64,000 bases of DNA. Origin: Candidatus Bathyarchaeota archaeon. GTDB lineage: Archaea; Thermoproteota; Bathyarchaeia; Bathyarchaeales; Bathycorpusculaceae. Both the position numbers and the translations under genes were made by a program. Location: contig CAVRFW010000003.1 of assembly GCA_963720565.1 (NCBI GenBank), positions 32,001-96,000 on the forward strand. The letters run 5' to 3'. Numbering within the stretch: the stretch's first letter is position 1; each line of letters opens with the position of its first letter. This document shows positions 7,696 to 23,858 of this stretch, piece after piece. A model generated the notes under the pieces. The model was not told the origin of the DNA. It saw nothing but the letters and a program-made list of their open reading frames with translations, and did not search any database.

Positions 7696-10515
7696 ATGGT
7701 TACTCAAAACCTTGACAGCGTTTTCAATCCCAAGAGCGTAGCCATCATAGGAGCCAGTGATGAGGAAGGCTCCGTTGGGCACGCCATCGTCAAAAACTTC
7801 ACCCAGCACGGTTATGCTGGAAAAGTCTACTTTGTTAACATACGCAAACCCGAGATTCTCGGAGTAAAAACCTACCAGAACATAGCGCAAATCCCTGAAA
7901 CCGTGGATTTAGCCATGATTGCCACGCCTGCGAAAACCGTTCCCGGAGTGGTGGAAGAATGTGGCAAAGCCGGCGTCAAAGGCGTAATCATAGTTTCAGC
8001 AGGATTCAAAGAAATTGGCGCTGAAGGCAAAGCCTTGGAAACTAGACTTCTGGAAATCAGGAAGCAGTACGGTATTCGAATTATCGGTCCTAACTGCATC
8101 GGAATAATCCGGCCCCGAATAAATCTTAACGCCACCTTCGTCGACAGAATCCCCAAACCAGGCAAAGTGGCTTTCCTCTCACAGAGCGGCGCCTTAGGCT
8201 CAGCAATCCTAGACTGGGCAATACACGAAAACATAGGCTTCAGCAACTTCGTCTCAGTAGGCTCCATGATTGACGTGGACTTCGGAGACCTCATAGACTA
8301 CTTCGGCACCGACCCCAAAACCAAGAGCATACTAATGTACGTGGAAGGAGTCACTGACGCACGCAAATTCATGAGCGCTACAAGACACTTCGCCCGAACC
8401 AAACCCATCATAGTCGTAAAAGCAGGAAAATTCGGCGAAAGCGCAAAAGCAGTGGCATCCCACACAGGCTCACTCTCAGGCGAAGACGACATCTACGACG
8501 CTGCCTTCAAACGCGCCGGCATAGTCCGAGTAGAAGAAATCGGAGACCTGTTCAACGCAGCTGAGGTTCTGGGAACACAACCCCTGCCAAAAGGACCCAA
8601 CCTGGCAATAATCACAAACGCAGGCGGCCCCGGAATCATGGCCACCGACGCCCTAATCGCCAAAGGAGGCAAACTCGCAAAACTAAGCCAAAAAACACTC
8701 GACGCCCTCGACAAAGTTCTGCCACCTTTCTGGAGCCGAGGCAACCCCATCGACGTTTTAGGCGACGCCAAAGCCGACCGCTACCAAGCAGCAGTAGAAG
8801 CCTGCCTCAACGACGATAACATCGACGGTATCCTTGTGATCTTCACTCAGCAAGCCGTATCTGAACCAATCGCAATAGCCAAAACCACCGTGGAAATGGT
8901 GAAAAACAAAGCCTACCAGAACAAGACAATACTGACTAGTTTCATGGGCTTCGGCGCGGTTGAAGAGGCAAACCAAATCCTCAACGCAAACAACATCCCA
9001 ACATACTCCACACCGGAAAACGCGATAAAAACCTACATGTACATGTACCAATACGAACGAAACCTGGGAATGATTTACGAGACACCTGAAGAGCTCCCCC
9101 TGGACGCTTTACCTCCGAAACGGCCAATAATGGTTATCCTCCGAAACGCTGCAATGGAAAACCGCGAACTGCTAAACGAAGACGAAGCCAAGAAACTCCT
9201 AGACTACTATAATTTTCCCATTGCAACCACAAAAGTCGCCATCAACCAGGACGAAGCCGTCGCATTCGCACACCAAATGGGATATCCCGTCGTTCTCAAG
9301 ATCCTTTCACCTCAAATAACCCACAAAACCGACGCGGGAGGCGTCGTCCTCAACATACACTCAGACGCAGAAGTCAGAAAAGCATTCGACCTGATTATGC
9401 AACGAGTTAAAAACTACAACAAAGACGCAAAAATAATCGGTGTCACCGTCCAAAAAATGATAACAAACAAAGGCACCGAAATCATACTAGGCGGAAAAAC
9501 CGACCCTCTCTTCGGACCAGTCGTCCTCTTCGGAATGGGCGGAATAGGCGTAGAACTATTCAAAGACTACTCCATCGGACTTCCTCCGCTTAACACCACA
9601 CTCATCAAGAGAATGATGGAAGAAACCAAGGTCTACCAACTCCTAAAAGGCTACAGAAACATCCCACCAGCAAACCTGAAACTCCTAGAAGAAACAATAC
9701 TTCTATTCTCACAATTACTCATCGACTTCCCACAAATAAAAGAAATCGACATCAACCCACTTCTCATAAACGAAAAAGAAGCCGTTATCCTGGACGCCAG
9801 AATCGCATTCGACAAAGAAAAAGTCTTCAAGAAATTCGAACCACACGAACACATGGTCATAAGCCCCTACCCGAAAAAACAGGAAGCACTTTGGACACTT
9901 AAGAACGGACAGGAAATCCTGCTCAGACCAATAAAACCCGAAGACGAGCCAATGTGGATAGAAATGTTCCAAAGCTTCTCAGAAGAATCAATACGCTACA
10001 GATTCTTCCAAATGCTCAAAGACACACCACACGAACTGCGCGTACGCTACTGCAACATCGACTACGACCGAGAAATCGCAATAGTCGCCGAACTCAACGA
10101 GGACGGCCACAAGAAGATCCTAGGTGTAAGCAGACTCAGCATGGAACCCGGCGGAAAAACCGGAGAACTAGCCTTCGTAATCGTCGACAAATGGCAAGGA
10201 TTCGGACTAGGAACAAAAATGGTCGACTACGTCCTCGAAATAGCAAAGGACATGGGAATCGAAAAAGTCTTCGTCATAATGCTGCCAGACAACTACAGAG
10301 CCTTAAACCTTACCAAGAAAATGGGCTTCCAAATCGAACACCTAAGCGACGGTACCGTCAAAGGTGTCCTAAACCTTAAAGAAGAAAGCACCCGCATAGA
10401 ATGCGCTCAACCCAAAAACCTTCCCATGGTCATTGAACCAGAAAAGAACGAAAAAATCCCGCCAGAAAAAATTGAGGAAGCGACTAAACCAACAGCAGAA
10501 ACTGCCCCGCAATAA
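7696..10515 (+). CDS. ADP-forming acetate/acyl-CoA ligase (alpha+beta) fused to a C-terminal GNAT acetyltransferase domain
   Basis: CoA-binding domain (IIGAS, GPNCIG), SQSGA, ASHTGSL, TNAGGPG, NPIDVLGDA, ATP-grasp HKTDAGGV and DINPL; C-terminal GNAT with WQGFGLG motif A. Confidence 0.92.
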   Translation: MVTQNLDSVFNPKSVAIIGASDEEGSVGHAIVKNFTQHGYAGKVYFVNIRKPEILGVKTYQNIAQIPETVDLAMIATPAKTVPGVVEECGKAGVKGVIIVSAGFKEIGAEGKALETRLLEIRKQYGIRIIGPNCIGIIRPRINLNATFVDRIPKPGKVAFLSQSGALGSAILDWAIHENIGFSNFVSVGSMIDVDFGDLIDYFGTDPKTKSILMYVEGVTDARKFMSATRHFARTKPIIVVKAGKFGESAKAVASHTGSLSGEDDIYDAAFKRAGIVRVEEIGDLFNAAEVLGTQPLPKGPNLAIITNAGGPGIMATDALIAKGGKLAKLSQKTLDALDKVLPPFWSRGNPIDVLGDAKADRYQAAVEACLNDDNIDGILVIFTQQAVSEPIAIAKTTVEMVKNKAYQNKTILTSFMGFGAVEEANQILNANNIPTYSTPENAIKTYMYMYQYERNLGMIYETPEELPLDALPPKRPIMVILRNAAMENRELLNEDEAKKLLDYYNFPIATTKVAINQDEAVAFAHQMGYPVVLKILSPQITHKTDAGGVVLNIHSDAEVRKAFDLIMQRVKNYNKDAKIIGVTVQKMITNKGTEIILGGKTDPLFGPVVLFGMGGIGVELFKDYSIGLPPLNTTLIKRMMEETKVYQLLKGYRNIPPANLKLLEETILLFSQLLIDFPQIKEIDINPLLINEKEAVILDARIAFDKEKVFKKFEPHEHMVISPYPKKQEALWTLKNGQEILLRPIKPEDEPMWIEMFQSFSEESIRYRFFQMLKDTPHELRVRYCNIDYDREIAIVAELNEDGHKKILGVSRLSMEPGGKTGELAFVIVDKWQGFGLGTKMVDYVLEIAKDMGIEKVFVIMLPDNYRALNLTKKMGFQIEHLSDGTVKGVLNLKEESTRIECAQPKNLPMVIEPEKNEKIPPEKIEEATKPTAETAPQ

Positions 10516-10731: not shown

Positions 10732-11232
10732 TTGATATTTTTGTCTAAAGATGACAATCGCCGCTTGATGTTGGAAAAAACCCTGAAAGAACACAAACAC
10801 CAAGAAAGCGCTCTTTTGGAAATACTTAACAAAGCCCAAGAAATCTACGGCTACCTTGACAAGGACTTGCTTATGGACGTCGCGGGATCTCTCAACATCC
10901 CACCGAGCCACGTTTTCGGCGTCGCAACCTTCTACAGCCTCTTCAAAATGAGAAAACCAGGCGAACACGTAGTCACAGGCTGCCTAGGCACAGCCTGCTA
11001 CGTGAAGGAAGTTGAAGACATAATGCAGGCCGTCGAACGCGAATACCAAGTTAAACGGGGAGGTTCCACGGCAGACGGCAAGCTTTCCTTATTCATGACC
11101 CGATGCATCGGCGCATGCGCGATGGCGCCAAACATCGTCGTCGACGACGAAGTAATAGGCAAAGCAACAAAAGAAATCGTACTCGAAAGAATAAAACAGG
11201 TACTCGGAGGAGTCAAGATTGAAGCTGTCTGA
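10732..11232 (+). CDS. hoxE: Bidirectional hydrogenase diaphorase subunit HoxE (NuoE-like, [2Fe-2S])
   Basis: VATFYSLF, CLGTACYVK and CIGAC motifs; GGAGG SD upstream. The start may be the TTG at 10741. Confidence 0.88.
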   Translation: MIFLSKDDNRRLMLEKTLKEHKHQESALLEILNKAQEIYGYLDKDLLMDVAGSLNIPPSHVFGVATFYSLFKMRKPGEHVVTGCLGTACYVKEVEDIMQAVEREYQVKRGGSTADGKLSLFMTRCIGACAMAPNIVVDDEVIGKATKEIVLERIKQVLGGVKIEAV

Positions 11233-12865
11233 CCTGCAGAAAATAGCTGAACATGAACTCGACTTCCAAAGAGCCTACAAGTACCGCATTAACGTCTGCT
11301 GCTCAAGCGGATGTGTTCCCTTCGGAGCCTTCAAAGTGCTCAAGGCTTTTGAAGAAGCAGTAAAAGAGCTCGGCGTGGAAAAAGAATGCAAAGTCGCCAG
11401 AACAGGCTGTGTCGGAACTTGTTCAGCAGGTCCCGCAGTAGTCATCGAACCTGGCGACTACCTATATCAGAGCGTTACTCCCGACAAAGTCCGCCAGATT
11501 GTGAGAGACCACATCGTACTTGGCTTACCTGTTAAAGATATGCTCTATGGAAACGAAGCCTTCTTCAAGAAACAACATCGCCTTGTCCTCAGGAACGCAG
11601 GCAAAATCGACCCAACAAGAATCCAAGATTACATAGCAATGGGTGGCTACGCCGGCATAGTAAAGTGCCTCGCAACAATGACCCCGCAAGGCGTCATCTA
11701 CGAGATCAGCAGCAGCGGTCTAAGAGGCCGAGGCGGCGCCGGCTTTCCAACCGGCATGAAATGGGGGCTAGTAGCGAGATCCCACAACTCTCCCAAATAC
11801 ATCGTCGCCAACCTGGACGAGGGAGACCCCGGTGTCTTCGCAAACAGAACACTAGCTGAAGCCGACCCGCACGCAATTCTCGAAGGCATGCTCATAGCGG
11901 CATACGCTGTCGGAGCTGAGAAAGGCTACATCTACATCAGAGCCGAGTACCCATTAGCCATACAAACACTCCAGAAAGCCATGGCACAGGCAAAAGCCAT
12001 GTCACTTCTAGGCGACAGCGTTCTTGAAACACCCTTCAAATTTGACGTTGAACTCCGACTAGGAGCAGGAGCCTTCGTGGCAGGCGAAGAAACCGCCATC
12101 TTAGCCTCGGTTGAAGGCCGCAGAGCTATGCCCCGCCCCCGACCACCCTATCCAGCCAACTCGGGACTATGGGGAAAACCCACACTAATACAAAACGTGG
12201 AGACGCTGGCAAACATACCAATAATAGTAATGAATGGCGGCTCATGGTTCGCCAAAACCGGAACACCAAAATGCACAGGAACAAAATGCTTCTCCCTGAC
12301 GGGAAACATAAACGACCCTGGACTCATCGAAGTACCCATGGGAACAACTCTGAGAGAAGTCGTGTTTGACATCGGCGGAGGGGTTCCAAAAAACAAAAAG
12401 TTCAAAGCAGTTCTAGTCGGCGGTCCCTCAGGAGGTTGCCTACCCGAAACACTACTCGAACTCCCAATAGACTACGATTCGCTAACAAAGGTGGGAGCAA
12501 TAATGGGTTCCGGAGGCATAGTAGTCATAGACGACAATTCATGCATGGTAGACACTGCAAAATTCTTCACCGACTTCTGCGTGGAAGAATCCTGCGGCAA
12601 ATGTACCCCATGCAGGGCAGGTCTCGCAAGAATAAAAGAAATATTTGACGGAATCACACGGGGAGACGGCAAACTGGAAGATTTGACAATACTGGAAAAA
12701 GCCAGCGGCTACATAAGAGACGCCAGTCTGTGCGGTCTCGGTCAAACAGCCCCCAACCCAGTCATAACAACTATGCGCTACTTCAAAGACGAATACCTCA
12801 AACACATAGTGGACAAGACATGCCCAGCGGGTAAATGCTTCAAAAAGCACAAGGAGGAAAAATAA
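11219..12865 (+). CDS. hoxF: Diaphorase subunit HoxF (NuoF-like; FMN/NAD(P)H, Fe-S)
   Basis: N-terminal thioredoxin-like [2Fe-2S] domain, GLRGRGGAGFPTG, DEGDPG, GAFVAGEETA, GGPSGG, ESCGKCTPCR, SLCGLG. Confidence 0.9.
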   Translation: MKLSDLQKIAEHELDFQRAYKYRINVCCSSGCVPFGAFKVLKAFEEAVKELGVEKECKVARTGCVGTCSAGPAVVIEPGDYLYQSVTPDKVRQIVRDHIVLGLPVKDMLYGNEAFFKKQHRLVLRNAGKIDPTRIQDYIAMGGYAGIVKCLATMTPQGVIYEISSSGLRGRGGAGFPTGMKWGLVARSHNSPKYIVANLDEGDPGVFANRTLAEADPHAILEGMLIAAYAVGAEKGYIYIRAEYPLAIQTLQKAMAQAKAMSLLGDSVLETPFKFDVELRLGAGAFVAGEETAILASVEGRRAMPRPRPPYPANSGLWGKPTLIQNVETLANIPIIVMNGGSWFAKTGTPKCTGTKCFSLTGNINDPGLIEVPMGTTLREVVFDIGGGVPKNKKFKAVLVGGPSGGCLPETLLELPIDYDSLTKVGAIMGSGGIVVIDDNSCMVDTAKFFTDFCVEESCGKCTPCRAGLARIKEIFDGITRGDGKLEDLTILEKASGYIRDASLCGLGQTAPNPVITTMRYFKDEYLKHIVDKTCPAGKCFKKHKEEK

Positions 12866-13582
12866 TTGAGCGACTCAAACGTCAAACTCAAGATAGACGA
12901 AGTCGAAGTCTCAGTTCCAGACGGAACAATGATACTCAAAGCAGCCAAAGATAACGGAATCATCATTCCAACACTCTGCGCTCTCGAAGGTCTATCAAGC
13001 TACGCTGGATGCCGCCTCTGCCTCGTCGAAATCCATGGCTCACCCAAACTGTTCCCAGCCTGTGCCACACCAGTAAGCAGCGGAATGGAGGTCACAACTA
13101 AATCCGAAAGGCTAACCGAATACCGCAAAATGGCGGTACAGCTGCTACTCTCAGAAAGAACACACATTTGTTCAACATGCATAGCCAACGACCACTGCGA
13201 ACTGGAAGCCATGGCGAACGAGCTTGGAGTTGACCATGTCATGTTTGAGCGCAAGTGGACCAGCCTCGAAATAGACTCGACCCACGACTTCCTGGTTATC
13301 GACCGAAACAGGTGTATACTATGCACGCGTTGTTTGAGGGTTTGCGATGAGATAGAAGGCGTTCACACTCTGGACTTGAAGCTGCGTGGCAAAGACTCCC
13401 AAGTAATCATGGATCTTGATGAACACTGGGCAAACTCCTGTTCATGCACATCATGCAGGAAATGCGCAAAAGTCTGCCCAGTCGGTGCCATTTACATAGA
13501 AGGAGAACCGGTTTCTCACACCAAGCGCAAGGATATAGCCGAATTTATCACGGAGAGGAGACAGAGAAAATGGAAACAATAG
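12866..13582 (+). CDS. hoxU: Diaphorase Fe-S subunit HoxU
   Basis: 238 aa; [2Fe-2S] (C...CRLC...C), HxCxxC...C cluster, and two CxxCxxC [4Fe-4S] motifs. Confidence 0.9.
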   Translation: MSDSNVKLKIDEVEVSVPDGTMILKAAKDNGIIIPTLCALEGLSSYAGCRLCLVEIHGSPKLFPACATPVSSGMEVTTKSERLTEYRKMAVQLLLSERTHICSTCIANDHCELEAMANELGVDHVMFERKWTSLEIDSTHDFLVIDRNRCILCTRCLRVCDEIEGVHTLDLKLRGKDSQVIMDLDEHWANSCSCTSCRKCAKVCPVGAIYIEGEPVSHTKRKDIAEFITERRQRKWKQ

Positions 13583-14112
13583 CAAAAACCAGAATGGCGA
13601 CAATGTGGCTCAGCGGCTGCTCAGGTTGCCACATGTCATTCCTCGACTTAGACGAGTCACTAATAGACTTAGCGAAAAAGGTTCAGATAGTCTACAGTCC
13701 AATCGCTGACGTGAAAGTTTTTCCTGAAAACGTCGACGTCACCCTGATCGAGGGCGCTGTCGGAGACGAAGAACAACTTGACCTGCTAAAGAAGGCAAGA
13801 GAACAATCCAAAATCCTAATTTCGTTTGGGGACTGCGCAGTCACAGGAAACGTGCCTGCATTGCGAAATGCTTTTGAAGACGGTGACAAAGCGGTTCTTC
13901 AGAGGGCTTACATCGAAAACGTTGACGTGAACCCGCAGATTCCAAACGATGTTCCCAAACTCCTAAAGAAGGTACGTCCGCTTCACGAAATCGTGAAAAT
14001 CGATTATTACATCCCAGGATGCCCACCACCATCAGACATAATCAGCTACGTGCTAACAGAATTATTGTCTGGAAGAACTCCCAACATGGAAGGCAGATCG
14101 AGATACGGTTGA
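13570..14112 (+). CDS. hoxY: [NiFe]-hydrogenase small subunit HoxY
   Basis: From ATG 13570 (180 aa): WLSGCSGCHMS, FGDCAVTGNVP, PGCPP. Short single-cluster small subunit typical of group 3d. Confidence 0.9.
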   Translation: METIAKTRMATMWLSGCSGCHMSFLDLDESLIDLAKKVQIVYSPIADVKVFPENVDVTLIEGAVGDEEQLDLLKKAREQSKILISFGDCAVTGNVPALRNAFEDGDKAVLQRAYIENVDVNPQIPNDVPKLLKKVRPLHEIVKIDYYIPGCPPPSDIISYVLTELLSGRTPNMEGRSRYG

Positions 14113-14122
14113 GGGATGCAAA

Positions 14123-15550
14123 ATGAACAAGAAAATCGTGATAAACCCCGTAACTAGAATTGAAGGACACGCAAAAATAACGATATTCCTAAACGATGAC
14201 GACTCTGTAAAAGAAGCAAGATTCCACGTTACTGACTTCAGAGGCTTCGAAAAATTCTGCGAAGGACGCCCATTCTACGAAATGCCAGGCATAACCGCAA
14301 GGTCCTGCGGCATCTGCCCAGTAAGCCACCTTATGGCATCAGCAAAAGCATGCGACGCAATAGTAGGAGTAAAACCCCCAACAACCGCTGTCATGCTTCG
14401 TCGCCTAATGCATATGGGTCAAATGATACAATCACACGCGCTGAACCTCTTCCACTTGTCATTCCCAGACTTCATACTAGGAATGGACTCAGACCCGGCA
14501 GAAAGAAACGTTTTCGGCCTCATAGCGAAACAGCCTGACTTGGCTAGGCAAGGCATCAGGCTACGCAAATTCGGACAAGAAATCATCGAGAAAGTAGCCG
14601 GAAAAAGAATACACTCCAACGAATGGGTTATCCCCGGGGGCGCAAACTGGCCCCTCACCAAGGAGAAAGCCGACTACCTCAAGTCAAACCTGCCTGAAGC
14701 CTTAGACACCACCATCAATACCCTTGCGCTGTTCAAAACTTGGCTCCCTAGACTGAAGGATGAAGTGCAAAACTTCGGCAACTTTCCCACCTACTACTTG
14801 GGACTGGTAACTGCAAAAGGTGGACTAGAACACTACGACGGAAAAATCCGAATAGTCGATGCAGAGGGCAAAATAGTGGCTGACCAACTTGACCCCACAA
14901 CCTATAACGAGTACATCGGCGAAGCTGTTGAACCCTGGTCTTACATGAAATTTCCTTACTACAAACCCTTGGGTTACCCCGATGGAAACTACAGAGTCGG
15001 TCCACTGGCCAGACTAAATATATCTTCACATTGCGGAACACCCTTGGCTGACGAAGAGCTCAAGGAATTCAAGAAACTCGGCAAAAATGGGATAGTCCAA
15101 AGCACTTTTCACTACCACTATGCCCGATTAATCGAGATTCTATTCTGTCTCGAAGGCGTTAAAGAAATACTGGAAAACCCCGATAGCCTCTCAGAACGCG
15201 TCAGCTCCAGAGCATTCGTCAACAACGACCAAGGCGTCGGAGTAGCCGAAGCACCAAGAGGAACTCTGATACACCACTACGCAGTTGACCCGCAAGGATT
15301 GATAGTGTGGGCTAACATGATCATCGCCACAGAACACAACAACCTCTCCTTCAACAAAGCCGTTACTCAAGTCGCCCAAAAATACGTGAAAGGTAAACAC
15401 CTGCAAGAAGGGATGCTAAACAGAGTTGAAGCGGTAATACGAGCATTTGATCCATGCCTAAGCTGCGCAACACACGCAATCGGAAATATGCCACTGGAAG
15501 TGCAACTCCTAGACTGCAAAGGTAAACTCTTAGAAAGAAAAGTACGCTAA
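14123..15550 (+). CDS. hoxH: [NiFe]-hydrogenase large subunit HoxH (group 3d)
   Basis: TRIEGH; L1 [11 protein letters not shown]2 DPCLSCATH with a C-terminal extension; operon context hoxEFUY. Confidence 0.92.
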
Positions 15551-15778
15551 GAAGCCTTAACCCCATTTTCATACTCAAAAATCTCGTACTTTTCAAAATC
15601 TTGTATGCTTGAACTGAGAGAACTGCAACTATAATAAGGATTATGCACTTCCAATTTGAGCCTTGACTTATGGGTGAACCCACGAGAGTCCAACTCAAAC
15701 TTTATGTAGTTGATATGGGATTTTTGAATATCTAAGCATGTATCCTGCGTCGGGAAATATACCCAGAGGTCAAGTTTA

Positions 15779-16327
15779 ATGACTGAGACAGTAATTCCCA
15801 AAGATCCTAACAGAGAGCCAATAAAATCTTCGGAAATTGACCCGAAGTTCAAGTATGAACTTTCCAAGATTCACGGGAGTGAAAAACTTCTCAAGTGCTT
15901 CCAATGCGGAACATGTACCTCTGACTGCCCAGTCGCAAGGTACAGCGACTCTTACAGACCAAGACAAATAATTCGCATGGCTCAACTCGGCCTTAAAGAC
16001 CGAATTCTAAACAGCGACACTCTATGGCTGTGTGCCGCATGCTTCACATGCACAGACCGTTGTCCGCAGGATGTTGAAGTAGCTAGTGTAATCCGCGTTC
16101 TAAGGAACTTGGCTGCAGAAAAAGGCTGCGTTCCCGTAGTGTTTAAAGAACAAGCTGCAAGCGTGCTTGAATCAGGTTACGCTTACAAAATCCCCGAATT
16201 AAGAATAAAGAAACGAGAGACTGTGGGGCTGCCACCACTGCCGAAAGGAAATCCCGAGAACATTCGCAAGGCTCTCAAGGGCGTCAAATTCGCAGAAAAC
16301 ATAAAAAAAGGTAGTGAACCAAAGTGA
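15779..16327 (+). CDS. hdrC: Heterodisulfide reductase subunit C
   Basis: CFQCGTCTSDCP and LWLCAACFTCTDRCPQ 2x[4Fe-4S] motifs. Confidence 0.92.
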   Translation: MTETVIPKDPNREPIKSSEIDPKFKYELSKIHGSEKLLKCFQCGTCTSDCPVARYSDSYRPRQIIRMAQLGLKDRILNSDTLWLCAACFTCTDRCPQDVEVASVIRVLRNLAAEKGCVPVVFKEQAASVLESGYAYKIPELRIKKRETVGLPPLPKGNPENIRKALKGVKFAENIKKGSEPK

Positions 16328-17208
16328 GCAGCAAATATCTGATTTTTCTCGGCTGCGCAATTCCATATCGCGTGTCAGCCTTCGAGATTTCCGCACGCAA
16401 GATTCTCCACAAACTGGACGTTGAATTGGTTGAGATGCCCGAATTCAACTGCTGCGGATTACCCCTAGATCCAGTTAGCCATGAAATGATGCTAATCCTC
16501 GCTGCAAGAAACTTGGCTTTGGCAGAGCAACAAGGACTGAACATAATTACTCTATGCCCTGGCTGCGCCGGTACTTTAAAGAAAGTTAACAAAATTTTGA
16601 AAGAAGACAAAACGCTAAGAGAGCAGATCAATGGTCACTTGAAAGAGTCTGGTTTAGAATTCAAAGGAACAGTGACTACAAAACATTTAATTCAAGTGCT
16701 AATGGAAGACGTGGGTCTGGAAAAAATTAAGAGCACCGTTGTCAGGCCACTGACCATGCTGAAGGTTGCTGAACACAACGGATGCCACATACTAAGACCC
16801 AAAGAGTACATCGGTTTTGATGACCCAGAAGATCCACAAACCCTGAAGACCCTCATTGAGGCTACAGGAGCTACTTGCCTAGACTACATGGACGAAACAG
16901 AGTGTTGCGGTGCCCCAAGTGTAGGCGTCAGCGACAAAGTCGCCTTGCAACTCGCCAGAGACAAGCTGAACCACGTTAAGATGGTGGACGCGGAAGCTTT
17001 AATAACAATCTGTCCGTTCTGCCACATAATGTACGACACCAATGAATTGCGCATCGAGAAAATGTTCAGTGAAGTCTATGGAATCCCAATTTTGCATTAT
17101 CCCCAACTTCTGGGTTTAGCCATGGGTTTGACTCCTGAGGAACTCGCTTTCAACGAACTCAGAGTCAATGCCTCAAAATTGTTAAAACACGTCACTGAAG
17201 GTGCTTAA
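16324..17208 (+). CDS. hdrB: Heterodisulfide reductase subunit B
   Basis: Two CCG domains (FLGC...NCCG...CPGC; GCH...ECCG...CPFC). Confidence 0.93.
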   Translation: MSSKYLIFLGCAIPYRVSAFEISARKILHKLDVELVEMPEFNCCGLPLDPVSHEMMLILAARNLALAEQQGLNIITLCPGCAGTLKKVNKILKEDKTLREQINGHLKESGLEFKGTVTTKHLIQVLMEDVGLEKIKSTVVRPLTMLKVAEHNGCHILRPKEYIGFDDPEDPQTLKTLIEATGATCLDYMDETECCGAPSVGVSDKVALQLARDKLNHVKMVDAEALITICPFCHIMYDTNELRIEKMFSEVYGIPILHYPQLLGLAMGLTPEELAFNELRVNASKLLKHVTEGA

Positions 17209-17214
17209 CAAAAA

Positions 17215-18189
17215 ATGAGTGAAAAATTGAAAATAGCCTTTTACTGGGCTGCAAGTTGCGGTGGCTGCGAAATAGCCGTATTAGATATAAACGAGAAAAT
17301 CCTCGACGTAGTAAAAATTGCGGACATCGTTTTTTGGCCTGTAGCCATGGACGTTAAGTACAAGGACGTGGAGAACATGCCTGACAACTATGTTGACATC
17401 ACTTTCTTTAACGGGTCCATTAGAAACTCGGAACAAGAGCACATGGCTAAACTCCTTAGGCAGAAGTCGAAGATACTTGTCGCCTTCGGCTCATGCGCCC
17501 ACGAAGGATGCATTCCTGGATTAGCTAACCTAACCGACAAGAAGGAGATTTTCGAGTACGTCTACTTGAAAGAAAACTCGGTTGTCAATCCTGAAGGCAC
17601 TATGCCCCAAACCACGACCGAAGTCAAGGAAGGCACACTCAGAATTCCAGAATTTTACGACACAGTGAAAACTCTAGCACAAACCGTTGAGGTCGACTAT
17701 TACTTGCCTGGATGCCCACCTCCCGTTAAACTAATAATCAATGCTGTGGATGCAATTGCAAGAAACGAGTTGCCCCCCAAGGGTTCAGTGCTTGCACCTC
17801 TCAAAGCCGTATGCGACGAATGTCCACGAAAACGAGAAAACAAGAAAATCGATGCACTATACCGTGTCTACGACAAGGTTCCTGAACCAGAAAAATGTTT
17901 ACTCGAGCAAGGCATACTCTGCATGGGTCTAGCCACCCGCAGCGGCTGTGGCGCCCAGTGTCTCAAAGTTGATATGCCTTGCACCGGATGTGGCGGAGCA
18001 GCCCCTAACCAGCCCGAGGTTGGCGCAGGGATGATAACCGCCTTAGCCTCAATAATAGGGTACGACGAGAAGAACATGTCCGCACAGGATGTTGAAAAAT
18101 TGATGAGCCAGATTAAAGACCCTGTGGGCACCTTTTACATGTACTCTTTACCCTCATCGATTCTCAGAAGAAAGGTGATGCAAAAATGA
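17215..18189 (+). CDS. mvhG: F420-non-reducing hydrogenase small subunit MvhG
   Basis: SCGGCE, FGSCA, PGCPP, CDECP, CLLEQGILCMG...CGAQC...PCTGC. Confidence 0.92.
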   Translation: MSEKLKIAFYWAASCGGCEIAVLDINEKILDVVKIADIVFWPVAMDVKYKDVENMPDNYVDITFFNGSIRNSEQEHMAKLLRQKSKILVAFGSCAHEGCIPGLANLTDKKEIFEYVYLKENSVVNPEGTMPQTTTEVKEGTLRIPEFYDTVKTLAQTVEVDYYLPGCPPPVKLIINAVDAIARNELPPKGSVLAPLKAVCDECPRKRENKKIDALYRVYDKVPEPEKCLLEQGILCMGLATRSGCGAQCLKVDMPCTGCGGAAPNQPEVGAGMITALASIIGYDEKNMSAQDVEKLMSQIKDPVGTFYMYSLPSSILRRKVMQK

Positions 18190-19640
18190 AAGAAATACTA
18201 ATAGACCCAATCACAAGACTCGAAGGCCACGGAAACATCTCCATATTCCTCAACGATGCAGGCGAAGTGGAAAACGCCTACCTGAAAATCCCCGAACTGA
18301 GAGGCTTCGAAAAATTCTGCGTCGGAAGACAAGCTGAACTCATGCCCCAACTCACAACAAGAATCTGCGGAGTCTGCCCAGTAGCACACCATTTCGCTTC
18401 TGTCAAAGCATTAGACGCTGCTTTCAATGTTGATCCTCCACAGGTAGCTAAGAAACTTCGAGAACTAATGTACGTGGGCTACATAATCTACGACCACACT
18501 CTCCACTTTTACTACTTGGGTGGTCCAGACTTCATAGTCGGTCCTGATGCACCACCTGAAAAACGAAACATCTTGGGAGTTATAGAGAAAGCAGGTATGG
18601 ATGTGGCAAAAGAAGTCATTAAACACCGAGCTTACGGACAGAGGATAACAGAGATTCTCGGCGGCAAAGCTACACATCCAGTATCTGGATTACCTGGAGG
18701 CATATCAAAACCCCTAAGCGAGGAAGGTCGCCAAGAAATCACGAAAATGGCAACTTCCAGTGTTGACTTCGCCAAACTTTCCCTAAAACTGTTCCATGAA
18801 ATTGTTTTAGGCAACAAACAATACTTGGATATGATAAAGAGCGACGCTTACACGATGAACACCTACTACATGGGCATGGTTGACGAACACAACAAAGTCA
18901 ACTTTTACGACGGAAAAATCCGAGTTGTAACTCCAAACGGAAACGAACTTTCCAAGTTTGAACCCAAAGACTATTTAGAACATATCGGCGAACACGTTGA
19001 AGAATGGACATATGCGAAGTTTCCATACTTGAAAAAAGTTGGCTGGAAAGGTCTATCATACGGAGTGGACAGCGGGGTCTACAGAGTTGGTCCGCTTGGA
19101 AGACTGAACGCTTCAGAAGGCTTATCGACACCATTGGCGCAGGCAGAGTATGAGGTTATGTACAACACTTTAGGAGGTAAACCGGTTCACGGCACCTTAG
19201 CCTTCCACTGGGCACGCTTAATCGAGTTGCTCTACGCTGCAGAAAAAGCCGTAGAACTCGCCAAAGACCCAGAGATAACGAACACAAACGTACGCAATAA
19301 ACCCGGAGAACCAGGAGAGGGCATCGGAGTGGTTGAAGCTGCAAGAGGCACACTGTATCATCATTATGTGCTGGACAAAGATGCATTGGTCAAGGACGTG
19401 AATATGATCGTGGCGACAACGAACAATTACCCTGCAATATGTATGTCAATACGCGACGCGGCAAAAGGCTTGATACACGGCGGTAAGGTTGACCAAGGCA
19501 CACTTAACATGGTGGAGATGGCTTTCAGAGCTTACGACCCATGCTTCGGATGCGCAACACATTTCGCAGTCGGACAAATGCCTATGACCATAAAAGTTTT
19601 CGACAGCCAGAAAAACCTCTTAAAGACATTGCAACGGTAG
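18186..19640 (+). CDS. mvhA: F420-non-reducing hydrogenase large subunit MvhA (group 3c)
   Basis: TRLEGH; L1 RICGVCPVAH; L2 AYDPCFGCATH; context with hdrBC and mvhG. Confidence 0.92.
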   Translation: MKEILIDPITRLEGHGNISIFLNDAGEVENAYLKIPELRGFEKFCVGRQAELMPQLTTRICGVCPVAHHFASVKALDAAFNVDPPQVAKKLRELMYVGYIIYDHTLHFYYLGGPDFIVGPDAPPEKRNILGVIEKAGMDVAKEVIKHRAYGQRITEILGGKATHPVSGLPGGISKPLSEEGRQEITKMATSSVDFAKLSLKLFHEIVLGNKQYLDMIKSDAYTMNTYYMGMVDEHNKVNFYDGKIRVVTPNGNELSKFEPKDYLEHIGEHVEEWTYAKFPYLKKVGWKGLSYGVDSGVYRVGPLGRLNASEGLSTPLAQAEYEVMYNTLGGKPVHGTLAFHWARLIELLYAAEKAVELAKDPEITNTNVRNKPGEPGEGIGVVEAARGTLYHHYVLDKDALVKDVNMIVATTNNYPAICMSIRDAAKGLIHGGKVDQGTLNMVEMAFRAYDPCFGCATHFAVGQMPMTIKVFDSQKNLLKTLQR

Positions 19641-19688
19641 AACCATTTTTCTTCCGCTCCTATTCTTCTATATAGTTGGCGTTTTACC

Positions 19689-20186
19689 TTGGGAAAGGCT
19701 GACCTTAAAATCCATAAGTCCTTGAAAGACTGGTTCACGGGCGCAAACAATATCGTTATAGCAGGCATAGGGAACCCCATACGAAGGGACGATTTTGTAG
19801 GCGTAAAGATTATTCAAAACATAGAAGGCAAAATCTCAAAAAATGTTCAACTAATCGAATGCGAAACCGTTCCAGAGAGTTTTCTTGAACCTATGATTGA
19901 ATTCAACCCGTCACACGTTCTCCTAATAGACGCCGCAATTCTAGGATCAGAACCAGGGGACATAAGCCTAATCGACCCTGAGAGCGTCGCAGAAGTTCCC
20001 GCTGTAACCACACATATGCTGCCCCTGCGAATATTCTGCGAATATATAACAAAGATGACAGGTGCAAGGATCGCCTTACTTTTAGTCGAACCCGAAGACA
20101 CCGATTTTGGGGAAGGCTTGACAAAGAAGGTCCAAGCTGCAGCAGAAAAAATCGCCAAAACTCTACTCGAAATATTCCCCGTTTAG
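19689..20186 (+). CDS. hycI: Hydrogenase maturation endopeptidase (HycI-like)
   Basis: GIGNPIRRDDFVG, ETVPE, LIDAA, TTHMLPL. Confidence 0.88.
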   Translation: MGKADLKIHKSLKDWFTGANNIVIAGIGNPIRRDDFVGVKIIQNIEGKISKNVQLIECETVPESFLEPMIEFNPSHVLLIDAAILGSEPGDISLIDPESVAEVPAVTTHMLPLRIFCEYITKMTGARIALLLVEPEDTDFGEGLTKKVQAAAEKIAKTLLEIFPV

Positions 20187-22935: not shown

Positions 22936-23858
22936 ATGAGTATGCGCATAATTTTTCTCGGAACCGCAGGTAGCGTCCCGACATTGAAGAGAAATCTACC
23001 AGCTGTGCTTGTCTGCCGCAAAAATGATCAAATATTGTTTGACTGCGGCGAAGGCGTTCAACGTCAGATGCTTATGGCAAAGACGGGCTTTCATAAGAAT
23101 ATGAAAATATTTCTCTCACATATGCACGGCGATCACGTTCTAGGTCTGCCTGGATTAATGCAGACTATGGCTCTAATGGACAGACGAAGCAAACTTCAAG
23201 TTTACGGACCGAACGGAATAAGGCATTTTCTGAAAAGCGTCAAAGAAGCACTGCAGTTCGGCTTGACCTATCCAGTTGAAATCCACGAAATTTACAGTGC
23301 TGGAATCGTCTGTGAGAACCGGAATACACGATCGAAGCTGCAGAATCAAACCATGTTATGTCTAGTTTTGCGTACGCGTTCATAGAAAAACAAAGACCCG
23401 GCAAATTCTATCCTGAAAAAGCCAAAGCACTGGGTATTCCAGAGGGTGAAATATGGTCTAAACTGCAACGTGGAGAGAAAGTCAAATTGGCAAACGGAAA
23501 GACTGTGAAGCCTGAAGAAATCATGGGATCAAATCGCAAGGGGCGAAAAATTGTTTACACTGGAGACACTAGGCCATTCAAAGACTTTGCGAGGTTCGCA
23601 TCTGGAGCGAACTTGATTATCCACGAAGCCACTCTCGACGATACCCTTGTGGAAAAGGCTGATCAAGACGGTCACTCAACGCCCAGTCAAGCCGCTGAGC
23701 AAGCCATGAAAGCTAAGGCAAAGCGATTGATTCTAACTCATATTAGCGCCAGATATCCTGACGCAAAATTGCTGCTGGAGCAAGCTCAAAAAGGTTTCAA
23801 AAATGTGGCTATCGCCGAGGATTTCTTAGAGATTGAAATGCCATTAGAGGATACTTAA
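22936..23858 (+). CDS. rnz: Ribonuclease Z (frameshifted near 23316)
   Basis: FLGTAGSVP, DCGEG and SHMHGDH in ORF 22936-23385; YTGDT, HEAT, HST and THISARY in ORF 23358-23858. One missing base joins the frames (...CEEPEYTIEAAESNH...). Confidence 0.9.

Follow-up and report, generated by a model that had tools for sequence, protein, structure and literature searches.

A probable split MvhADG–HdrABC operon behind a Hox hydrogenase in Bathyarchaeia, with a candidate promoter relic of its lost hdrA

Introduction

The flavin-bifurcating MvhADG–HdrABC complex of hydrogenotrophic methanogens is known from solved structures (PDB 5ODC, 8RVU and 9SW2-9SW6), as is the Fdh–Hdr–Fmd assembly of Methanospirillum hungatei (PDB 7BKB). 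The Mvh/Vhu–Hdr–Fmd/Fwd supercomplexes, as set out in the accessible parts of PMC13580544 and PMC13518236, define the link made by the polyferredoxin FwdF. In Bathyarchaeia of the Bathy-6 group, the accessible text of PMC7886697 describes a hoxEFUYH operon, encoding a group 3d hydrogenase, together with an Hdr of unknown substrate. The subject of this analysis is an hdrCB-mvhGA operon that follows hoxEFUYH in a Bathyarchaeota genome (G000; 2.09 Mb, 88.8% complete), within a window of 64,000 nucleotides (nt) that covers positions 32,001-96,000 on its contig C3. This operon is very probably one half of a split canonical flavin-bifurcating MvhADG–HdrABC system, whose other half is an hdrA::mvhD fusion encoded in trans, and the segment at 15667-15751 of the window, upstream of hdrC, is a relic left by an in-operon hdrA that was deleted except for part of its 3' end.

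All six functions of the methanogen complex are encoded in G000 too. HdrB, HdrC, MvhG and the C-terminal open reading frame (ORF) of HdrA match over their full length, and the ligands and the E/K pair of the flavin adenine dinucleotide (FAD) site are retained. The differences are that HdrA and MvhD form one fused protein (type Ia in the accessible part of PMC12054007), that the genes are distributed over two loci, and that McrA and ComA were not found in G000, the heterodisulfide CoM-S-S-CoB of coenzymes M and B not being established as substrate. The FmdF of the 7BKB assembly is the closest match to the polyferredoxin encoded in front of the G000 hdrA. G000 carries fwdDBAC and a separate fwdF beside hdrA, its FwdF having three ferredoxin domains against four in the solved systems; PMC13580544, in its accessible text, considers it unlikely that the non-canonical FmdF groups 3-6 form supercomplexes of the solved kind, and proposes Bathyarchaeia as one of two donors of the FmdF of class II methanogens. 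The hox order is identical to that reported for Bathy-6. For a circular Bathy-6 metagenome-assembled genome, a legend of bioRxiv 2024.09.16.613360 places MvhD/hdrA (2887) beside MvhB (2886), with HdrCB (2744-2745) and Hox (2706-2710) apart from it. The fwdF-hdrA pair is, going by this legend, already in print for a relative under the label MvhB, whereas the polyferredoxin is called FwdF-like here; the split, the relic and the promoter are not discussed in the accessible part of that preprint.

The hdrCB-mvhGA operon and its relatives

ORFs and family matches give the order hoxE-F-U-Y-H, a gap of 228 nt, and hdrC-hdrB-mvhG-mvhA-hycI, all on the plus strand, and neither the ORF list nor family searches yielded an hdrA or mvhD ORF in this cluster. 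hdrC (15779-16327; family and PDB matches) encodes a protein with two [4Fe-4S] motifs, and hdrB (16324-17208; family match) one with two CCG domains that retain the cysteine ligand pattern of the non-cubane clusters. After a gap of 6 nt follows mvhG (17215-18189), a full-length group 3c small subunit that matches residues 5-317 of 5odc_E (E 3e-66), and then mvhA (18186-19640), a NiFe large subunit by family match and NiFe motifs. Neither HdrC nor MvhG departs from the canonical length or has an additional domain, and a cysteine and motif census found the cluster and NiFe ligands intact in all subunits of the window operon. MvhA finds 9sfi_g (E 1e-118), 7t2r_D (5e-117) and 5odc_F (8e-112), and by itself it does not tell group 3c from 3d; these groups are separable by their small subunits, because MvhG matches 5odc_E in full and HoxY is short with four cysteines. 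The window copies of hdrB and hdrC are the sole ones found in G000, and HdrB is its sole CCG protein found.

An earlier note on this DNA had described the operon without hdrA and mvhD, on the same strand behind hox, with hdrB ending at 17208 and mvhG starting at 17215, and all of this holds. It had also looked for hdrA between hdrB and mvhG and concluded that no remnant was left, which was mistaken in both respects: in relatives hdrA-mvhD lies 5' of hdrC, mvhG directly follows hdrB in 78 of 80 loci, and the segment at 15667-15751 matches the 3' end of the hdrA that sister lineages keep within the operon. These 80 loci are the hdrB loci closest to G000, for which the gene order around hdrC was read; they belong to a family survey of 151 genomes (G-numbers; G000 included), and the HdrB relatives nearly all carry the label Bathyarchaeota or Bathyarchaeia. 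The genomes in all counts are related, so that counts are not independent. As for what stands 5' of hdrC, 18 loci have hoxH within 600 bp and four have it within 2.5 kb, 15 have hdrA-mvhD, 41 have other genes, and two run into a contig end.

A relic of hdrA upstream of hdrC

Alignment of the upstream DNA reveals a conserved block 5' of hdrC whatever gene precedes it. A profile, for which 29 of 32 training loci were used, matched all 31 held-out split loci (31-80 bits) and none of 31 shuffles, and in G000 it matches at window 15667-15751 only. In the loci that keep hdrA in the operon, the same profile matches not 5' of hdrC but within the last hdrA, where the C-terminal ferredoxin motif is encoded (15 of 15). 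With the TATA-like core taken out, the flanks of the block still outscore each of 200 shuffles in every one of the 26 loci, of 64, that have an exact core. The segment at 15667-15751 is, on these matches, what remains of the 3' end of an in-operon hdrA after its deletion. Another 40 loci were chosen by hand because their contigs are long, most of them belonging to Hox-negative genera; hdrA-mvhD immediately precedes hdrC in 36 of these, two have the relic and two reach a contig edge. The in-operon hdrA state amounts to two changes on a quick, unrooted HdrC+HdrB tree, which was used for counting state changes; it is likely ancestral, because it is spread over HdrB identities of 59-90%.

The relic profile has no match 5' of hoxE, fwdF, fwdD or the mvhD-like/nfn locus, and there is therefore no sequence sign of co-regulation at these loci. 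A longer hdrA relic, suspected by eye in five loci, was discarded, as scores beyond about 90 nt fall within the shuffle range, and so was a 21-codon leader ORF within the relic, whose start or frame is missing in several loci.

A likely promoter embedded in hdrA codons

The codons that encode E-D-L-C are the most fixed of 85 four-codon windows in the in-operon hdrA (0.96 against a median of 0.59; 47 alignable of 51 in-operon genes), and GAT TTA TGT AG occurs in 44 of these 47 and in none of 13 upstream hdrA paralogues. A promoter matrix derived from 13 of the 41 tRNA upstream regions of G000, with sites chosen by an AT-rich rule, gives this site the top rank among about 1,180 positions in 43 of 48 in-operon hdrA genes. 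It lies about 220 nt 5' of mvhD in most in-operon loci and about 70-86 nt 5' of hdrC in 49 of 64 split loci, and within the relic fixation is highest at the TATA-like core and in the bases just 5' of it. With a TATA-like box that is preceded by purine-rich bases and stands at a set distance from the gene, the site agrees with archaeal promoters that have a TATA box and a B recognition element (TATA/BRE). In G000 the box is TTTATGTA at 15701-15708, the best site of the gap and among the top 0.12% of random positions. It is likely, as judged from sequence, that an intragenic promoter has outlived hdrA and gives hdrCB-mvhGA a start of its own.

In two genomes of one genus (G139 and G120; loci L146 and L150) the in-operon hdrA is kept with synonymous codons at the site that do not form a TATA box. 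The HdrA protein does not require the TATA-forming codons, because these two genomes use others, and they represent a natural control for the embedded promoter.

It has been established that archaea can initiate transcription within genes and operons (Koide et al. 2009, PMC2710873). What the two cases share is initiation within coding sequence, here inferred; they differ in that the promoter proposed here would be fixed family-wide through synonymous codons and would persist as non-coding DNA after deletion of its host gene. No published account of an hdrA-embedded promoter or relic was found, subscription journals lying outside the coverage of that search. A plain TATA regular expression was uninformative, and a sigma-70 and terminator scan found 15 and 12 sites where shuffles gave 10.7 and 14.0 on average. 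The 18 adjacent loci have T-rich stretches 3' of hoxH, but these are weak in G000 (6 T in 10), lack a control and were left unused.

HdrA-MvhD in trans and its pairing with FwdF

MvhD family matches occur at three places in G000, all on contig C9. One is the C-terminus of an HdrA, encoded by the hdrA::mvhD fusion, and the other two belong to one Fd-MvhD-Fd-MvhD protein (Fd, ferredoxin domain) 5' of nfnAB. The fusion encodes the sole HdrA found in G000 and sits behind the gene for an FwdF-like polyferredoxin, the only one in the genome. It scores 819 bits against HdrA2, its HdrA cluster cysteines and the four MvhD cysteines are retained in the census, and the alignment keeps equivalents of E356 and K409 of 5odc_A, the bifurcating-FAD residues as numbered in the accessible part of PMC12054007. 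The genome search that the earlier note proposed has thus located hdrA-mvhD on another contig, as its suggestion of a supply in trans would have it; the interchangeable HdrA paralogues it also envisaged did not appear, as there is one HdrA only.

Across the 151 genomes, matches were found for HdrB in 142, MvhA in 132, HdrA in 137, the polyferredoxin in 129 and HoxH in 32. HdrA is present in 76 of 78 high-quality family genomes and in 45 of 50 split-operon genomes; the HoxU search covered 50 genomes of the 80-locus set. The polyferredoxin is FwdF-like and not MvhB-like, being closest to the FmdF of 7BKB (E 2e-42 against 3e-14 for MvhB), and its 24 cysteines correspond to three ferredoxin domains. 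Its gene lies directly 5' of an hdrA in at least 102 of 129 genomes, a lower bound because the pairing was read from 146 of 150 listed HdrA matches, out of 244 in all, and within 7 kb of one in 13 further genomes. The fwdD-B-A-C-mch operon of G000 has no fwdF of its own, and no fwdG was seen in it. In 5 of 12 hand-picked loci the same HdrA orthologue stands beside hdrCB, once as fwdF-hdrC-hdrB-hdrA.

The operon has also been split in other ways, as the following arrangements indicate: in G133 and G110 hdrB is not followed by mvhA of this type, for which neither genome has a match, and in G070, G104 and G146 mvhA is on other contigs while hdrCB stands beside hdrA-mvhD.

The 403-amino-acid Fd-MvhD-Fd-MvhD protein is encoded directly 5' of nfnA-nfnB-like genes (L005:9881-13329, that is, G000:C9:110880-114328), and double-domain matches like it occur in 5 of 5 relatives. 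It might offer MvhAG another docking site, or connect to Nfn.

All six loci L102-L107 (G105:C41, G188:C2, G135:C23, G173:C49, G163:C6 and G077:C104) hold a second HdrA-MvhD in which two cysteine columns, one in HdrA and one in MvhD, are occupied by in-frame TGA codons; in three of these loci it stands in tandem with the all-cysteine copy. SelD scores above its cut-off in 5 of 5 genomes with this type and occurs in 10 of the 151 family genomes; SepSecS and tRNA-Sec are present in 4 of 4 relatives and not in G000. Selenocysteine in Bathyarchaeia was dropped as a new finding, since the accessible part of PMC9499178 already reviews its use in Bathyarchaeota.

Evidence against the split and alternative explanations

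Several observations weigh against a split canonical system with a surviving promoter. The TATA-like site of G000 reaches a score of 6.2, where the tRNA median is 12.1, and such a site is the best one upstream of hdrC in just 37 of 64 split loci. ComA, McrA and a second CCG protein (TfrB, HdrD) were not found in G000, which is 89% complete, coenzyme B genes falling outside that search; the disulfide and its regeneration are consequently unexplained. The hdrA of G000 is frameshifted as assembled, by one extra base just 5' of the FAD-binding GxGxxG motif. This base (L004:8782) is absent from the single covering contig in each of runs X1 and X2, whose contigs come from close populations, about 96-97% alike and not established as the same strain; runs X6 and X18 do not span the position. 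In the closest relatives the hdrA frame is open over about 810-840 codons. The frameshift is likely an assembly error, because X1 and X2 lack the extra base and further indels split genes in the assembly (2 of 29 genes tested, hdrA counted). RNA run X18 was set aside as expression evidence, as it covers the fwdF-hdrA locus in part only, with contigs 90-99% alike. Neither HdrA nor FwdF was found in four split-operon genomes (G112, G158, G168 and G192), three of them hox-adjacent, and G156 and G167 gave distant HdrA paralogues only. These misses are compatible with incomplete assemblies: G112 is 74% complete, although G192 (= G046) reaches 95%; in the clade of G112, G158 and G168 the locus has been relocated, its flanks cannot separate deletion from an assembly gap, and G192 yielded no flank.

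The arrangement that first drew attention, hox directly in front of hdrC, could be read as one Hox–HdrBC–MvhAG machine without HdrA, in which HoxEFU, via HoxU, or MvhG would pass electrons directly to HdrC. The earlier note favoured looking for this adjacency elsewhere, and it does recur, in the 18 of 80 loci mentioned above; moreover, HoxU was found in none of nine genomes that retain in-operon hdrA, the four split genomes without an HdrA match and the frameshift in G000 would fit as well. Yet the split operon occurs with Hox adjacent, elsewhere or not found: HoxU is present in 30 of 39 genomes with other genes upstream and in both contig-end genomes, and was not found in the remaining nine of the 39. 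Adjacency requires nine changes on the tree, at least four of them forced by well-supported branches, and the exclusion between Hox and in-operon hdrA tracks one clade boundary (two changes), or roughly one event. hdrC has its own conserved, promoter-like upstream element whatever lies before it, HdrC and MvhG show no domain beyond the canonical ones, and the apparently HdrA-less G134, the fifth genome without a match, has its gene end at a contig edge. Direct wiring is therefore highly improbable. Adjacency recurs but is not required, since 30 of the 39 other split genomes carry Hox at another place; it is kept in about a third of Hox-bearing relatives (18 of 54 informative genomes, and 2 of 4 congeners), while two more of the loci with other genes have hoxH about 8 kb off. 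The earlier note would have called the complex split canonical if a co-expressed hdrA-mvhD lay elsewhere and adjacency were not conserved; this is borne out by half, an hdrA-mvhD gene having been found elsewhere and adjacency being kept in that third. Another frequent occupant of the upstream slot is a group 3b hydrogenase, encoded on the opposite strand. The gene order is not due to chance, yet it is not special to G000.

Two other readings were weighed. If the G000 hdrA were truly broken, HdrBC would be an orphan awaiting loss and MvhAG would work alone or with the Fd-MvhD-Fd-MvhD protein; the place of the frameshift just before the GxGxxG motif, the congener G112 without hdrA and fwdF, and the ferredoxin domains of the double-MvhD protein that precedes nfnAB would suit such decay. 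It is nevertheless very unlikely, considering that the extra base is missing from two independent runs, that the assembly has other indels, among them the likely one in the window's RNase Z-like gene, and that the cluster ligands of HdrB, HdrC and HdrA are all intact. A less remote reading, still unlikely, is that the 85-nt element is an hdrA relic kept as a regulator binding site or an RNA structure and not as a core promoter. Conservation that extends about 30 nt 5' and 45 nt 3' of the TATA-like core argues for it, as does the weakness of the G000 site next to tRNA promoters; the concentration of the most fixed columns in the core and the bases just before it, the spacing to the hdrC start, the first rank given to the site in 43 of 48 hdrA ends by an independent promoter matrix and the lack of an Rfam match for the element argue for a promoter.

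Proposed mechanism and substrate

The split of a canonical MvhADG–HdrABC operon, which is preferred here, would have started from an ancestor with a second hdrA and mvhD directly 5' of hdrC. Both would then have been deleted, except for about 85 nt that held the embedded promoter of mvhD-hdrCB-mvhGA, and the remaining promoter would start hdrCB-mvhGA independently. By analogy with the solved methanogen complexes, electrons from H2 would pass through MvhA and MvhG to the [2Fe-2S] cluster of the fused MvhD and on to the FAD of HdrA, from which those of high potential would go via HdrC and HdrB to a disulfide, and those of low potential to ferredoxin, or via FwdF to formylmethanofuran dehydrogenase; bifurcation could also operate in the opposite direction. 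Hox would form an NAD(H)/H2 enzyme of its own (NAD, nicotinamide adenine dinucleotide) that happens to sit in the vacated slot and uses the same single maturation protease.

The single sister locus that was examined carries, in its upstream slot, GcvH, a GltD-like flavoprotein, a long MvhD, an HdrA of 985 amino acids and MvhD. This 985-amino-acid HdrA is absent from G000, which has two GcvH homologues elsewhere on C9; GcvH has been raised as a candidate for the disulfide in Culexarchaeia (PMC9723716, accessible part). It is a speculation that Hox replaces the NAD(P)H input of the sister locus via H2. An extended form of it, which is rather doubtful, would see in this non-methanogenic clade a stripped Mvh–Hdr–FwdF–Fwd supercomplex, in which the sole HdrA is encoded together with the sole FwdF, a three-domain form wiring bifurcated electrons directly to CO2 fixation; Hox would have inherited the slot of the deleted HdrA/GltD-like module as well as its NAD(P)H-input role, feeding the system by intracellular H2 cycling.

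For the family, the analysis removes the false lead of an HdrA-free Hdr. A promoter seemingly fixed in hdrA codons family-wide, and outliving its host gene, would date the split of the operon and mark hdrCB-mvhGA as a transcribed unit, and the family-wide pairing of fwdF and hdrA offers a concrete target for the Hdr–Fwd structure from the TACK archaea that PMC13580544 calls for in its accessible text. Fossil promoter and FwdF–HdrA pairing are modest additions.

Hox and neighbouring genes

The Hox operon starts with hoxE (10732-11232), a 2Fe-2S thioredoxin-like diaphorase subunit with four cysteines, whose best match is NF005747 HoxE (189 bits, under the cut-off of 224). It is followed by hoxF (11219-12865), the flavin mononucleotide (FMN)/NAD subunit, which matches residues 4-536 of 597 of 7t2r_B, and hoxU (12866-13582; NF005745 HoxU, 310.9 bits, under the cut-off of 333). 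hoxY, a short small subunit with four cysteines (ORF and family match), likely starts at 13570 and ends at 14112 within an ORF at 13444-14112. hoxH (14123-15550), a group 3d NiFe large subunit, has L1/L2 motifs and a C-terminal extension, and its best PDB match is 7t2r_D (E 1e-161). The hallmarks of group 3d HoxEFUYH, namely the E-F-U-Y-H order, the short HoxY and the NiFe motifs, are found in G000.

The C-terminal domain of HydB, with its 2x[4Fe-4S], has a role in bifurcation. This domain of the bifurcating NiFe-HydABCSL (7T2R) is missing from the G000 HoxF, whose last cysteine is at position 540. A TATA-like stretch lies about 80 nt 5' of hoxE. As the operon has this stretch of its own and lacks the HydB C-terminal domain, Hox is likely a plain NAD(H)/H2 enzyme, judging by these features. 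A hycI-type maturation protease (19689-20186; family match) closes the cluster on the plus strand; it is the sole one found in G000, for three group 3 hydrogenases, and sharing it would be a mundane reason for hydrogenase genes to cluster.

An acyl-CoA ligase/GNAT (Pat-like) gene at 7696-10515 of the window stands 5' of the variable slot in many relatives, in the same position with hox, a group 3b hydrogenase or nothing in the slot. Its paralogue in G000 follows the group 3b operon on contig C5 (L089:6926-10933), which is of sulfhydrogenase type and has its beta and gamma genes frameshifted in the assembly. The RNase Z-like gene of the window, named from its translation, lies at 22936-23858 in two overlapping ORFs, likely through an assembly indel.

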